8,130 bases of DNA from a virus (IMGVR_UViG_2654587509_000003:1-8130); one strand, 5' to 3'. Shown: positions 1,408 to 7,810, counted from the stretch's first letter. Notes: generated by a model from the sequence alone, not told the origin. Program-made: numbers and translations.

Positions 1408-1901
1408 TGCTGCCCCCACAAACAGACTTCACGCTCAATATCACGACGGGTCATCAGCCCTTTCCATTGCTTACCGCCAGCGTATGTCCAGCGACGTAGC
1501 TGGTCACATGCGCCTTTGATATCACCCTGGTTTATTTTGCGAAGAAGCGTCGATGTTCTGAAATTACCAGCGCCCACGTTGTAAACGAACGAGTAAAGAG
1601 CGCCGCGCGTTGTTTCCGGTATATCGACTTTGATGTACGGGTTAATTTGTCTGGCGACCGTGGCAAGGTCTTTATTCAGGAGGGCTTTGCATTCTGCTTC
1701 GGTATACGTTTTACCGGGAATGATGTCTTTTCCGGTGTGTCCGTGACATACAGTCCATACGCCAACGATATCTTCGTATGGTATGTAGCTGACACCTTCC
1801 AGGCCATCGTCACCACTCGGACCAGTGATGAGCACAGACGCTATGGCAACAGCCCCACCACCAATAGCAGCAGCAACAGCCTTGCGTAATGATGGCGACA
1901 T
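1404..1901 (-). CDS. R: SAR endolysin (phage lysozyme, R21 / RrrD-like)
   Basis: 165 aa. N-terminal Gly/Ala-rich weakly hydrophobic signal-anchor-release segment ([20 protein letters not shown]), then a lysozyme core with E...D...T spacing ([24 protein letters not shown]). Near-identical to the DLP12/P21-type lysozyme as I recall it. AGGTG Shine-Dalgarno; start overlaps the holin stop (TAATG). Confidence 0.9.
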
Positions 1902-2116
1902 TATTCACCTCTCGCAGCCTTACGCTTATCTTCTTTAATCTTGAAATAAAGGTTTGTCAGATACGTCAGCAAGCCAAACACCAGGCTACCCAATACGCCT
2001 ATTGCCACCCACTGGGATGGGGAGACTTTGTCCAGCAACTGCAGTAGCCAGTATCCCGTCCCCACCGCTGACGTGGTGTATGACACACCTGTTGTGATTT
2101 TTTCCATCTGGTACAT
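1901..2116 (-). CDS. S: Class II pinholin (S21-like) with dual-start motif
   Basis: 71 aa, [71 protein letters not shown]. Two TM segments and a charged C-terminus. Met1-Tyr-Gln-Met4 gives the antiholin/holin dual start typical of S21. The track's start at 2161 is an unsupported N-terminal extension. Confidence 0.85.
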
Positions 2117-2295
2117 ACCCCGTCTCCCGTTATCCGGAAGCTGACAACAATAAAAAGCCACCAGTTAATTCCTGATGGCCCTGATGCATAAACGTCATAA
2201 TACCTGACTGTTATGATTGACAATAATGATAATGTTTATATAGAAAGGTCCCCGATGTGTGTTACATATCATTTCTCCACGGGGAATATCCCCAC

Positions 2296-2346
2296 GCCAG
2301 CGCAGACTCTTTTACCCGTTCTCTTCTGCGCTGGCTCTTTTTTATT
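2296..2346 (+). terminator. Plus-strand intrinsic terminator (11-bp GC-rich stem, then TCTTTTTTATT)
   Basis: gccagcgcaga (2296-2306) pairs perfectly with tctgcgctggc (2325-2335) around an 18-nt loop, followed by tcttttttatt. The U-tract is only on the plus strand. A GGGGA-ata-TCCCC hairpin sits just upstream (2281-2293). Confidence 0.45.
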
Positions 2347-2524
2347 ATGCTGCTGCATTTACCTCTGGCACCAGGCTTTCTATCTCAACACAATACGTGG
2401 TACTTCTTGTAACCAATATCATAACGATTAATCGACATAGAATTTCTCCCGTGTACAGGAACAGAGTTAAAAAGCCGGAACCGGAATCAAATCACAGGAT
2501 GACCATCTGCCAGTGGCAGGTCAT

Positions 2525-2551
2525 AAAAAAAAGGCCGCGCCATGCGCAGCC
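2525..2551 (-). terminator. Strong minus-strand intrinsic terminator between the cargo gene and the holin
   Basis: Minus-strand RNA 5'-GGCUGCGC-AUG-GCGCGGCC-UUUUUUUU: 8-bp GC-rich stem with one G.U pair, 3-nt loop, then 8 U (plus-strand A-run 2525-2532). Confidence 0.55.
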
Positions 2552-2981
2552 AGAACTCACAAGGAAAATGATAGAAGGAAATAACATTAGTGATGTACGC
2601 ATGGCGCCTCCCGCTAAGTTCTGCAATGATCAAACAGAACTCGCTACGTGCCCTTAAAACTCGATCATTTAGCCCCTCCAAGGAGGATTCACCATGCGGT
2701 TGGTTTTTTAATAAACAGTAAACAAAAAAGTCAAGAATTATTCATTCTGTTCTTTCATCATCGGCCACAGCAATACCACAATGCCGCAGACCAGAGCGCC
2801 ATCAGTCAGTACCAACATTATCCTGCTGGTGAAATCCATCATCACCATCACTAAAAGCAGGATCACAACAGCAAGCAGACACAGTTTATAAAACAATGTT
2901 CAGAAAACGCATTCAGCATGCCTAAGGTTCTATTCCTACGAATAGCCAACTTGCAACTTAAAATATTATTTATGCAGCCAA

Positions 2982-3740
2982 TTAAATTCTGGTCCTTACA
3001 ATATCAACCTGAAGATTCTTATCTTGTGCTGATTGATAAATGACAAACCTTTTACTACCTGCATTGAAAGAAGTAGACAAAACCAGACAATTATCATAAC
3101 GAGCAAGAACATAATACCAACCATCATTATAATTAATCATTTCATATTCTTTCTTAAACTGCGGTTTGTAATATCCTGTCAGAAATGAAAAAAGCCAGAA
3201 ATATGCCACAAAAGCAATCATCACAATCTCAAAAAAATGTTTTTTTATAAATGGCTTATCATAGAAGCATGATACCGATAAAAATCGCCCATAAGATCTT
3301 ATCGAAATTGTAACCGCCAGCGCAATCGCTGCTGACAGTAGCAAAAGAGGTACCTGAATCTTCTGTCTCAATATAGAAAACTCAATAATTGCCGGCACAA
3401 ACAATAATTCCACAGCAAAATAAAGGCGAAATACATTTAGCTCTTGCATAGAATGTTTTCTTTTCACTGCGAAAAAGAATACAACACCAATACCCCAACC
3501 GATAAGAAATATAGCAATGACGATAACTGCAAAAAATAAACTTCTGGCAACATCATCAACACCTGCACCTACAATCCACCATGGGAAGCCGTAGTAAAAA
3601 GAAGTACCCCATCCATAGAAATAAGCACTCCCCCATCCAAGGCATCCCATGTAGGCAATAAAAAGTGAAGAACTCCTGAGCAGCGCACCATCCTTCATAA
3701 CCACCCCAATACAAGATGATAACATTGGCTTACAACTCAT
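2982..3740 (-). CDS. Hypothetical polytopic membrane protein, AT-rich cargo (moron) gene
   Basis: 252-codon ORF. The likely true start is ATG at 3698 (MKDGALL..., preceded by GGGGTGG); the ATG at 3740 has no Shine-Dalgarno. About 5-6 hydrophobic helices and a hydrophilic C-terminal tail of about 50 aa. Hand-counted GC of sample stretches is about 30-35%, against about 55% in rusA. No family recognised. Confidence 0.7.
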   Translation of the reverse strand: MSCKPMLSSCIGVVMKDGALLRSSSLFIAYMGCLGWGSAYFYGWGTSFYYGFPWWIVGAGVDDVARSLFFAVIVIAIFLIGWGIGVVFFFAVKRKHSMQELNVFRLYFAVELLFVPAIIEFSILRQKIQVPLLLLSAAIALAVTISIRSYGRFLSVSCFYDKPFIKKHFFEIVMIAFVAYFWLFSFLTGYYKPQFKKEYEMINYNDGWYYVLARYDNCLVLSTSFNAGSKRFVIYQSAQDKNLQVDIVRTRI

Positions 3741-3836
3741 AACAAAAGCAATTCAATGCCGTCAAGAGGTTACAGGCTAAAAAACTCTATTACATAGCAG
3801 CCAGCATGTTTACCGTACAAGTACAACTCAGGGCAT

Positions 3837-3860
3837 AAAAAAAACCCACTCGGCAGCGGG
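3837..3860 (-). terminator. Intrinsic terminator about 50 nt downstream of the Q stop (candidate tR')
   Basis: Minus-strand RNA 5'-CCCGCU-GCCG-AGUGGG-UUUUUUUU: 6-bp stem with one G.U pair, tetraloop, then 8 U (plus-strand A-run 3837-3844). Confidence 0.55.
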
Positions 3861-3908
3861 TTTATACATTTTTTACAACATACCAAATTTGCATGAAGTA
3901 TATGGCTT

Positions 3909-4598
3909 TTAATCCAGTTTTGCAATATTTTGCTGTAAAAATGCTGCCTTTTGTTTTGAACGTGTTCTCGTCACAAGCAATAAAGCATCACTATCAAGCT
4001 GTAGAAAAATGTGCTTCATTGCAACCCAGCGTTCAGTAAATGTCTCGGACCAGTTTTTTGTTGTCACTCCCACCAATGATGCCAGTGTCTGGTATTCATA
4101 GGCCTCACGCCCTGCAAGTTCGCTCTTCACATCCTGTGCAGCCAGCCAGATTAACGTCTTCAGGCGATCCAGTGTCTTACCTGCAATTTTTCTGTTACTT
4201 AACAAATCTTTAAACTCGCTCCATGCCCATTGCGTTATGGTGACCTGATGCCCCCATCGAACGCTTTCGCTGTAACACCAAAGCAACCATGCTTTCTGAT
4301 GTTCATCGAGAGACAAAACCGCGCGGCGCCATGAAGAGGTTGAGAATTCAACCGGGCTGACCAAAGCAATGGATGAACCTTTTGCGTACGACTGCTTACC
4401 GGAAGTCGGCGTATTATCCAGCGTAATCATCTTGCCAGTTACCACATCCAGAATGTGCGGCTTCTTTCGTTTGTATGTACCAGTATCAAATTGTGCATGC
4501 TCCTGCCAGGCTTCGAGCTGGCCTTTCGTTGCTCCGTTCAAGTCAGCAGTAGCTGCCATAAGTTGCTCACGAACATACTGTAAATATTGGGTATTCAT
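3909..4598 (-). CDS. Late-gene antitermination protein Q (QuuQ-like)
   Basis: 229 aa from ATG 4598 (MNTQYLQYVREQL...) with AAGGA 8 nt upstream. Sits between the rusA/ylcG block and the lysis genes, the canonical Q position, and resembles the E. coli Qin-prophage Q as I recall it. The track's longer ORF to 4682 overlaps ylcG and is an artefactual extension. Confidence 0.65.
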   Translation of the reverse strand: MNTQYLQYVREQLMAATADLNGATKGQLEAWQEHAQFDTGTYKRKKPHILDVVTGKMITLDNTPTSGKQSYAKGSSIALVSPVEFSTSSWRRAVLSLDEHQKAWLLWCYSESVRWGHQVTITQWAWSEFKDLLSNRKIAGKTLDRLKTLIWLAAQDVKSELAGREAYEYQTLASLVGVTTKNWSETFTERWVAMKHIFLQLDSDALLLVTRTRSKQKAAFLQQNIAKLD

Positions 4599-4612
4599 GC
4601 AGTAAATCCTTT

Positions 4613-4735
4613 CTATATTTTGGCATAATTCTTCAACATTCGGTAATCGTTCAAAACCGAATCGGGGAAACGACATAAGCACAGGAGCCCCCAGCGACAG
4701 CGAAGGAGTTCTGATATATAAGACTCAAACATCAT
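4613..4735 (-). CDS. ylcG: Small YlcG-like protein (40 aa)
   Basis: Translated by hand; not in the ORF track. [43 protein letters not shown] overlaps the rusA stop (ATGA). Resembles DLP12 YlcG in position and motif as recalled. Confidence 0.5.
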
Positions 4736-6938: not shown

Positions 6939-7547
6939 TTATTGCAACAGATTCTGACGGAAATATGGTAACACACGACTCCACTTATCATCCTGCCACG
7001 GTTGGAATTTTACATGCGCCGTTTCTCTGGCAAGGGTTTCTCGCGCCCTGTTGAGTATCCGAGGATATTCTTGTTCGATTGAAGTGAATCTACCTGCTTC
7101 GCGATGCTCTGCGACCTGAAGAAGGGGCGTAACGTTCTGGCAGGCGGTTAACATCGTATCACTTGCTCGCCATAACCAGGAGAGTGTGCAAAGTTCGTTA
7201 TCAGTGAATTGTTTTGTGATTGGGGATTGTTGAACTTCTCGATCGAGAATATCCAGAACCCAGCGGCGGAATTCTTTGGCCACAGGAGTACGAGCAAACA
7301 TGGCGATCAAATGGGCTCCGCGAAGGCTAAATACTCGAGACTCCTGCATTCCACGAGGGGTGGTCACTTTGACCACCCTTGTCATCATATCTGTGAATTC
7401 ATCTGAGTGCCGAGAGTAAATGCGCTGAACTGCTTTATCGTCCGCATATTCCAGTGCTAAACCAACTTCAGTGGCAGTAAGCCAAATTCTGTTATTGTGG
7501 CAAATCGGGGTAAACGTCGTTTTGTGGAATGCTAATTGAGTAGTCAT
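6939..7547 (-). CDS. Bro-N / antirepressor-like DNA-binding domain protein (Roi/Ant-like) with uncharacterised C-terminal domain
   Basis: 202 aa. N-terminal NNRIWLTATEVGLALEYADDKAVQRIY...RVFSLRGAHLIAMFARTPVAKEFRRWVLDIL fits the Bro-N / ORF6N-type pattern as recalled. GAGGTG Shine-Dalgarno before ATG 7547. GC about 55%. Confidence 0.6.
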   Translation of the reverse strand: MTTQLAFHKTTFTPICHNNRIWLTATEVGLALEYADDKAVQRIYSRHSDEFTDMMTRVVKVTTPRGMQESRVFSLRGAHLIAMFARTPVAKEFRRWVLDILDREVQQSPITKQFTDNELCTLSWLWRASDTMLTACQNVTPLLQVAEHREAGRFTSIEQEYPRILNRARETLARETAHVKFQPWQDDKWSRVLPYFRQNLLQ

Positions 7548-7571: not shown

Positions 7572-7604
7572 TCACCACCAACGACGCCAATCGACTGGTG
7601 GTGA
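7572..7604 (-). promoter_or_regulatory. Perfect 9-bp inverted repeat (TCACCACCA-N15-TGGTGGTGA) in the upstream/5' region of the Bro-N-like gene
   Basis: Seen directly. Could be a protein operator or a 5'-UTR hairpin. No U-tract follows, so it is not a terminator. Confidence 0.3.
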
Positions 7605-7703
7605 ACTGTGTAAGGTTGGCGTAACCGGCTACTCAAACCCGGCGCTTCCGAAGAAGCCCTCACACAGCCCACCATAATTTGGGCATAGCCGTGCTTAGCG
7701 CAC

Positions 7704-7724
7704 AAAAAAACCGCTTAACGCGGT
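7704..7724 (-). terminator. Modest intrinsic terminator (tR-like) upstream of the Bro-N-like gene
   Basis: Minus-strand RNA ACCGC-GUUAA-GCGGU followed by 7 U (plus-strand A-run 7704-7710). Confidence 0.4.
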
Positions 7725-7810
7725 ATGCGTTGAGTAGTATCCCGGGACGCCAATCCCGTGTGCCGATTTTGCGGCAACGCACAGAATATAGCGCCGGATA
7801 AATCATGTCG

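Follow-up and report, generated by a model that had tools for sequence, protein, structure and literature searches.

EcOnc32, a prophage small RNA encoded against the late genes upstream of a P21-type holin, as a probable diverged paralogue of Esr41 with entC as its likely chief target

Esr41, also named EcOnc14, is an Hfq-dependent small RNA (sRNA) of enterohaemorrhagic Escherichia coli (EHEC) that represses cirA, chuA and bfr, has reported effects on fliC and the LEE (locus of enterocyte effacement), and has a target set that was likened by Waters et al. to that of RyhB (PMC5286369). PasA and PasC of the enteropathogenic E. coli (EPEC) strain E2348/69, and the anti-sRNAs AsxR and AgvB, are likewise Hfq-dependent and are encoded, in lambdoid or Stx prophages, between a moron or esterase gene and the holin gene. 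An element in the same slot and orientation is present on the plus strand of the 8,130-nt viral stretch IMGVR_UViG_2654587509_000003:1-8130 (the window, with coordinates counted from its first letter), and comparison with published data identifies it as the already catalogued sRNA EcOnc32, such that the RNA itself is not new. What this analysis adds is the paralogy with Esr41, the match of the seed to entC, the Fur-like box, and the linking of three published data sets in which the RNA appears under three names. The fuller reading, to which we give a probability of about three in four, is that positions 2204-2346 (+) are the gene of a prophage-encoded, Hfq-dependent and trans-acting paralogue of Esr41, with entC as its chief target and possible control by iron.

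The signals that define the element are collected in Table 1, and several patterns are apparent. First, a sequence-only reading of the window had noted a TTGACA hexamer, an AT-rich -10-like sequence, a GGGGA-AUA-UCCCC hairpin and a terminator with an 11-bp stem, and each of these is present where it had been placed. The terminator arms, GCCAGCGCAGA (2296-2306) and TCTGCGCTGGC (2325-2335), are 100% complementary and are followed by TCTTTTTTATT at 2336-2346, and the 93-nt RNA 2254-2346 folds into three hairpins at -35.1 kcal/mol, compared to -14.8 +/- 2.2 kcal/mol for shuffled sequences (z = -9.05, with 0/200 as good). Our terminator scan missed the 2296-2335 hairpin because its loop exceeds 8 nt. 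On the minus strand the sequence of this hairpin has no U-run, and a bidirectional or late-strand terminator at this position was rejected for that reason.

Secondly, there are two overlapping promoter candidates, P1 and P2, and the 5′ end of the RNA is therefore a prediction. The TTGACA of P1 is identical in the full-length variants A, B and C (see below) and in Esr41, where it lies within the common block ATTGACAA. The -10 region of P1 is an AT-rich block in which a TATATA (2237-2242, plus strand) overlaps the TATAGA; variant B has TATAAA at this position, and Esr41 has TTGACA-18-TATATA followed by GATG. A generic promoter scan missed P1 because TATAGA lacks the final T. The RNA predicted from P1 is 91–94 nt long. 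P2 has a predicted start at ∼2240, giving an RNA of ∼105 nt that is closer to the published Northern signal of ∼112 nt and that retains the same three hairpins on folding; its -10 reads GATAAT, TATCAT and TATAAT in variants A, B and C respectively, with the critical A and T kept in all three. The window has one occurrence of the pattern TTGACA-N14-18-TATA, for which 0.09 would be expected, and one or more matches arise in 16/200 shuffles, so that from the consensus alone the promoter is only weakly significant.

The identification with EcOnc32 is based on sequence identity and coordinate mapping. Over window positions 2150-2749 the ungapped identity is 99.5% to prophage Sp3 of strain Sakai and 99.3% to prophage PP4 of E2348/69, with the sRNA body identical; the window departs from Sakai at just three bases in this interval (2250, 2374 and 2703), the first of which, just upstream of the RNA, is C in the window and T in both Sakai and E2348/69. 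Table S2 of Tree et al. 2014 (PMC4104026) lists EcOnc32 in Sp3 at Sakai 901574-901662 on the minus strand, an interval that by exact string mapping corresponds to window 2349-2261. Its entry in that table records a pass in 5/5 data sets of Hfq crosslinking and analysis of cDNA (Hfq-CRAC), a predicted Rho-independent terminator, the Northern signal, and an area under the curve (AUC) of 6.5e7 that is the second largest among the rows of the table examined; the interval ECs0816-ECs0818 is the top-ranked Hfq-bound intergenic region in that study (PMC4104026), and the Sakai copy lies between ECs_0816 and the holin ECs_0818. In the EPEC data set obtained by RNA interaction by ligation and sequencing (RIL-seq; Pearl Mizrahi et al. 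2021, PMC8550237) the same RNA carries the open reading frame (ORF) name E2348C_1013 and is typed as ‘CDS’ (coding sequence). Its RNA-seq BaseMean is 2064, whereas the two neighbours have values of 147 and 5.4 (supplementary files 4 and 7 of PMC8550237); it is reduced in an hfq deletion (log2 -2.9, adjusted p = 1e-23), takes the second position in 100% of its own chimeras, which is the signature of an sRNA, and accounts for ∼808,000 of the 18.2 million fragments in one condition (PMC8550237).

The 3′ ends of the RNA are equally informative. The EPEC RIL-seq chimeras all end at 1060613 and the Sakai reads obtained by crosslinking, ligation and sequencing of hybrids (CLASH) end at 901579, both of which correspond to window position 2344 in the U-tract, and thus the 2296-2335 hairpin acts as a plus-strand terminator in vivo. 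EcOnc32 in Sp3 and PP4 shares with the window its strand, sRNA body and 3′ end, and also its neighbourhood, the order in all three being Q, a 247-aa protein, DUF3927, PasD/EcOnc13, the sRNA, the P21-type holin and RrrD. The published data on these near-identical copies, together with the mapping here, establish that the transcript exists, which strand it comes from, where its 3′ end lies, that it depends on Hfq and that it is physically associated with entC mRNA. They also agree with the sequence-only reading in that it had called for a plus-strand sRNA of about 100 nt with its own transcription, running against the late operon and ending at the hairpin and U-tract; direct published evidence for this, with the ∼112-nt Northern signal, comes from the 99.5%-identical loci. 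No main-text discussion of EcOnc32 was found in the literature searched, and its function is undescribed.

The target with the best support is entC, which is the first gene for making enterobactin and ranks as the top specific partner in two independent published interactomes. Several observations point to it. In EPEC RIL-seq the entC 5′ untranslated region is the most specific partner of the RNA (263 chimeras in 3 libraries, odds ratio 14, p = 4e-165; PMC8550237), and RNase E-CLASH recovered a hybrid of EcOnc32 with ECs0632 (entC) at 706302-706362 (Waters et al., PMC5286369, supplementary file 9), with a score of 4.4 compared to 3.1–4.2 for experimentally validated Esr41 targets. The entC coding sequence starts at 706356, inside the span of the hybrid, and the seed segment of EcOnc32 is present exactly in the hybrid reads. 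In the RNAduplex prediction, nucleotides 11-28 of the sRNA (2264-2281) pair with -13 to +4 of entC, a stretch that takes in the Shine-Dalgarno sequence and the AUG, at -21.3 kcal/mol, against -9.0 +/- 2.3 kcal/mol for shuffles (1/2000 as good); the Esr41 seed differs in its flanks and length and consequently pairs poorly with entC, at only -11.5 kcal/mol. We propose that EcOnc32, which is transcribed against the late operon and ends at 2344, has a sigma-70 promoter, and that Hfq would present the seed to the translation-initiation regions of host mRNAs. Because the seed covers both the Shine-Dalgarno sequence and the AUG of entC, the expected outcome would be a block of initiation followed by RNase E-mediated decay.

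Other partners of the RNA were also considered. The rpoS leader and the nleB-region partners were rejected as seed targets, with predicted duplexes of -8.6 and -5.9 kcal/mol respectively that are worse than those of shuffles, and the lack of seed complementarity in these partners suggests that some chimeras mirror abundance on Hfq and not pairing. The Esr41 targets cirA, chuA and bfr are absent from the EcOnc32 CLASH hybrids (4 rows) and from the RIL-seq partners examined. EcOnc32 also forms a CLASH hybrid with ECs1655, with a score of 3.2 (PMC5286369), and we note that the ribosome-binding site and start of ECs_1655 in Sakai prophage Sp8 (1183-1200 of the extracted stretch) contain a perfect 14-nt complement of the seed, GGAGAAAUGAUAUG, a match that could reflect cross-prophage regulation. 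An origin of the seed as a cis-antisense to an ECs1655-like toxin was discarded, since ECs1655 is a KGG-repeat protein similar to YmdF/YciG and is located in a different prophage.

The Rfam covariance model for Esr41 (RF02676) matches 2256-2345 (+) at 32.3 bits (E = 0.0042 over the whole window, 3.4e-4 locally), and the local alignment of EcOnc32 with Esr41 has a z of 5.1. All of the elements of the Esr41 architecture are present in the window, namely a 5′ hairpin, a single-stranded U/C-rich seed, a small G/C hairpin and an intrinsic terminator. In sequence, the two RNAs share the -35 block, an AT-rich -10, the GAUG 5′ end, the 5′ hairpin, a CAUUU(U)CUCCA seed, a GGGG-loop-CCC hairpin and a GCCnGC terminator; they also share Hfq binding and an involvement with iron metabolism, through cirA, chuA and bfr for Esr41 and the partner entC for EcOnc32. 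The seeds themselves, CACAUUUUCUCCAU in Esr41 and AUCAUUUCUCCAC in the window, have the core UUUCUCCA in common, with one U fewer and different flanks in the window. There are two further differences. First, the terminator loop is 18 nt in EcOnc32 and ∼7 nt in Esr41. Secondly, the window locus does not share the location of Esr41, which lies in SpLE1 (O-island 43/48) between iha and an IS3 element, whereas EcOnc32 is in a lambdoid prophage between Q and the holin; the two genes coexist in one O157 genome. Because the covariance-model score falls far below the family threshold, we regard EcOnc32 as what sequence comparison suggests, a diverged paralogue of Esr41 and not a member of the family. 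A preprint by Zhu, Shabalina and Storz (10.64898/2026.05.13.724894) reports frequent Esr41 cmscan matches near PasD, and we take these to be the EcOnc32 element, although the EcOnc names are absent there.

Relationships to other known sRNAs are more restricted. PasC, and a second element of E2348/69 prophage PP2, share with the EcOnc32 locus the terminator 3′ arm and the esterase-end sequence CGCTGGC-T7-ATTATGC, and neither PasA nor PasC has the EcOnc32 seed and middle hairpin. Homology to PasA and PasC over the whole RNA was rejected, as the alignment is significant over the terminator 3′ arm and U-tract only, and a likeness of the 5′ hairpins (ATGTG..TACAT) was set aside as a visual one without statistical support. 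Membership in the AgvB/AsxR anti-sRNA family was also rejected, with no Rfam match at E <= 1, nor locally at E <= 10. The second PP2 element (2760-2895 of the extracted stretch, minus strand) is a promoter-like TTGACA plus GCCAGCG...CGCTGGC-T7 terminator unit directed against the late genes at the esterase stop, and may represent a further sRNA gene, in tandem with PasA, that has escaped annotation. EcOnc32 resembles RyhB in its Hfq dependence, a possible Fur box over the promoter and iron-acquisition targets, although the two have no sequence relationship. RyhB is a core-genome, Fur-repressed sRNA reported to support enterobactin synthesis, and the predicted effect of EcOnc32 on entC would be the opposite.

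Near-identical copies of the element (241-nt query) are present in 585/5426 complete E. coli genomes, all of them chromosomal and including O157:H7, O55:H7 and O111 strains, and in 558 of the 585 carriers the copy is >=99% identical to the query. Among 185,579 species-representative genomes, a degenerate pattern for the core was found only in a single E. coli and a single Shigella flexneri, with none outside Escherichia/Shigella, although this exact-match pattern would miss more diverged relatives; it was also found in 70 IMG/VR viral contigs, all with an EcOnc32-type core. From the core-pattern contigs and BLAST matches we recovered four types: type A is that of Sp3, PP4 and the window, type B is located downstream of either stx2g B or a DUF3927 gene, the terminator loop is shorter in type C, and type D, with a different 5′ part, is downstream of stx2i B. 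Types A–C show no variation in the -35, in the -10 region or over the first ∼50 nt of the RNA, which take in the 5′ hairpin and the seed ACAUAUCAUUUCUCCAC, and the departures are in the promoter spacer, the discriminator, the terminator loop and the seed flanks. The fourth pair of the 5′ hairpin is G.U in variant A, A-U in variants B and C, and G-C in Esr41; the middle hairpin is kept with G.U changes in variants C, D and Esr41, and the upper terminator stem of type C has a compensated change from C-G to U-A. We note that the diverged variants of the Stx2g and Stx2i prophages are found after the 3′ end of the toxin operon, to which they are antisense, with stx2B on one side and the holin on the other; AsxR has a comparable position in the Stx2a phage Sp5.

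Sequence around the promoter suggests that EcOnc32 could be controlled by Fur. The 19-mer that overlaps both promoter candidates (Table 1) is the best Fur-like site in the window, although its score of 15 is reached in 3/2000 local and 8/200 whole-window shuffles. The site is kept at 15/19 matches in variant B and 14/19 in variant C despite their different spacers; Esr41 has 12/19, and the genuine entC-fepB box itself has 15/19. Such a site over the promoter could make expression responsive to iron. MEM-HEPES and Dulbecco's modified Eagle's medium (DMEM), in which the cultures of the published studies were grown, are iron-poor, and high abundance of EcOnc32 in them would fit iron control. A bolder picture, which we consider possible but doubtful, is that a Fur-controlled prophage sRNA shuts off enterobactin through the entC ribosome-binding site at low iron, complementing Esr41, and that the same gene, lying between two late-strand terminators, might also act as an insulator between the lysis cassette and the strong promoter of PasD.

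Several observations weigh against the reading of this locus as an Hfq-dependent, entC-directed Esr41 paralogue. First, Hfq binding and the discrete transcript are known from the Sakai and E2348/69 copies, and would extend to the window's own host by sequence identity. Secondly, the predicted length of 91–105 nt is short of the ∼112 nt seen on the Northern. Thirdly, the Esr41 score of 32.3 bits compares with a gathering score of 102 bits, making the relation a distant one, and covariation is thin, with one fully compensatory pair among 7 closely related sequences. Fourthly, the link to entC consists of chimeras and complementarity, from which we infer repression, and the most numerous RIL-seq partner is the rpoS leader, with 537 chimeras (PMC8550237). 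Finally, EcOnc32 is also abundant in LB medium, at about one-third of its DMEM level (PMC8550237), which is weak for strict Fur control. Repression of entC, control by Fur and the exact 5′ end are accordingly the predicted parts of the explanation.

The alternative that survives best is a role in cis, in which the RNA, or convergent transcription, acts on the late transcript between PasD and the holin and either delays lysis or mops up read-through; we consider it unlikely. The sequence-only reading had described the RNA as antisense to the late transcript upstream of the holin, and this holds in that 2254-2344 is fully complementary to that transcript; the RNA does not, however, overlap the holin ribosome-binding site, from which it is >135 nt away, upstream of the holin start at 2116. 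The slot and orientation are common to PasA and PasC of E2348/69 (directionality ‘> < >’), convergent sRNA pairs have been described at the moron site (PMC4104026), and the flanking late-strand terminator-like hairpins at 2533-2551 and 2154-2182 would fit an insulating function downstream of the highly expressed PasD. The lysis-timing or anti-read-through function that had been suggested nevertheless finds no direct support, since uninduced lysogens, with an almost silent holin, contain the RNA in abundance; with E2348C_1014 taken as the holin by position (BaseMean 5.4), the late mRNA is essentially absent. The RNA is also Hfq-dependent, always occupies the sRNA position of chimeras, and was captured in vivo on the initiation region of entC by two independent studies. 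In addition, the homologue Esr41, encoded beside iha in SpLE1 without an antisense gene, acts in trans; the constraint at the locus falls on the anti-Shine-Dalgarno seed that matches entC; and Sakai Sp3, which has an integrase pseudogene and is apparently defective, keeps the sRNA intact. Given the slot shared with PasA and PasC and the two late-strand hairpins, a side role as an insulator or as an RNase III target on the late mRNA is conceivable alongside the trans-acting role of EcOnc32.

We think it highly improbable that a protein-coding gene accounts for the plus-strand signals. The reading frame concerned, 2259-2657 (+), is open in the window and is annotated by RefSeq/PGAP in many genomes as a 132-aa hypothetical protein (ECs_0817, E2348C_1013, WP_012578864.1; also WP_033816266.1) that runs across the sRNA with its terminator and also across the antisense of PasD. 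We reject this coding interpretation for several reasons: transcripts stop at 2344, 85 nt into the ORF; the product matches no Pfam family above threshold; the frame is partial, frameshifted or pseudogenic in the diverged variants and in E2348/69 PP2; its GTG start lies within the 5′ hairpin without a Shine-Dalgarno sequence; and the RNA behaves as an sRNA in always being second in RIL-seq chimeras. The annotation is very likely a mis-annotation, and is the reason for the ‘CDS’ label in the EPEC RIL-seq tables. Equally improbable is the absence of any separate gene, with chance hexamers and with hairpins that serve the minus-strand late mRNA as structural elements or in its processing, for although the promoter consensus is marginal (the 16/200 shuffles noted above) and promoter-like matches across the window equal the shuffle expectation, published strand-specific data place the RNA opposite the late genes with its 3′ end at the U-tract, the hairpin lacks a U-run on the late strand, and the promoter hexamers are conserved in the variants and Esr41.

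Table 1. Positions of EcOnc32, its signals and neighbouring features in the window.
Feature	Position	Strand	Evidence or remark
Class II holin S of P21 type; first of the lysis genes downstream on the late strand	1901-2116	-	Pfam PF04971, E = 1.1e-32
Late-strand terminator-like hairpin, 11 pairs, tail TTATTGTTGT	2154-2182	-	Terminator scan
Promoter candidate P2: CTGACT (2204-2209), 18-nt spacer, GATAAT (2228-2233)	2204-2233	+	Promoter scan, 9/12 matches
Promoter candidate P1, -35 hexamer TTGACA	2217-2222	+	Sequence reading; homologous to the Esr41 -35
Fur-box-like 19-mer AATAATGATAATGTTTATA	2222-2240	+	15/19 matches to GATAATGATAATCATTATC; over both promoter candidates
Promoter candidate P1, -10-like TATAGA	2239-2244	+	16-nt spacer; predicted start ∼2251-2254
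sRNA body	2254-2344	+	91 nt, counting from the GAUG that is homologous to the 5′ end of Esr41
5′ hairpin GAUGUGU-GUU-ACAUAUC	2254-2270	+	Fold
Seed ACAUAUCAUUUCUCCACG, anti-Shine-Dalgarno/anti-AUG	2264-2281	+	Invariant in types A–C; entC pairing; CLASH reads
Middle hairpin GGGGA-AUA-UCCCC	2281-2293	+	Sequence reading and fold
Intrinsic terminator: 11-bp stem, 18-nt loop, then UCUUUUUUAUU	2296-2346	+	Inverted-repeat check; in vivo 3′ ends
PasD1/EcOnc13, STnc100-related sRNA convergent with EcOnc32; terminator 2533-2551	2525-2697	-	STnc100 match, 37.5 bits
DUF3927	2738-2896	-	
Q	3909-4682	-	

The genes flanking the element are all on the minus strand and encode Q, a 252-aa protein of unknown function, DUF3927, the P21-type holin, lysozyme, Rz and Rha. 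The convergent sRNA PasD1 was located from its coordinates, 1060260-1060432, which correspond to window 2697-2525, and its published seed UGUGAG and flanks are present. On the holin side, the late-strand hairpin at 2154-2182 stands back-to-back with the sRNA promoter, ∼40 nt upstream from where the holin begins, and an analogous late-strand hairpin with a U-run precedes the holin in E2348/69 PP2 (∼3140-3170 of the extracted stretch); the window hairpin might keep read-through out of the lysis genes in lysogens. The arrangement of the two sRNA genes looks like the product of an esterase deletion, as judged from two sets of matches: 2414-3000 matches phages 434 and 2B8 at ∼97–98%, in which a SASA-family esterase gene comes after PasD, the matching region including the start of that gene, and ∼2336-2420 aligns with the 3′ end of, and the sequence just past, the SASA-family (NanS-p-like) esterase of E2348/69 PP2. 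Such a deletion would have brought PasD and EcOnc32 into a convergent pair ∼180 nt apart.

Two other minus-strand regions are of note. At 7594-7791 there are Rfam matches above threshold to C4 antisense RNA (74.8 bits) and isrK (58.7 bits), with c4 a1/b1 target sites, and this region is immediately upstream of a Bro-N/P22_AR_C antirepressor-like ORF at 6939-7547; together these constitute a P1/P7-type C4-ant immunity module in a lambdoid prophage. Directly downstream of Q, 3833-3902 contains a strong terminator-like hairpin with a T7 tract (3842-3863) and a weak STnc240-like match, and is probably a short pR′-tR′ leader RNA, by analogy with lambda 6S RNA or StxS.

EcOnc32 is thus among the most abundant Hfq ligands of EHEC and EPEC and yet is without a described function, and its annotation as a hypothetical protein led to its being listed among the CDSs of a major interactome study. 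The proposed circuit, from Fur through EcOnc32 to entC, would be carried by about 11% of complete E. coli genomes, including those of O157:H7, O55:H7 and O111 strains, and by Stx2g and Stx2i phage contexts. If true, it would tie prophage carriage to siderophore production in these pathogens, and would represent a phage-encoded rewiring of their siderophore economy.

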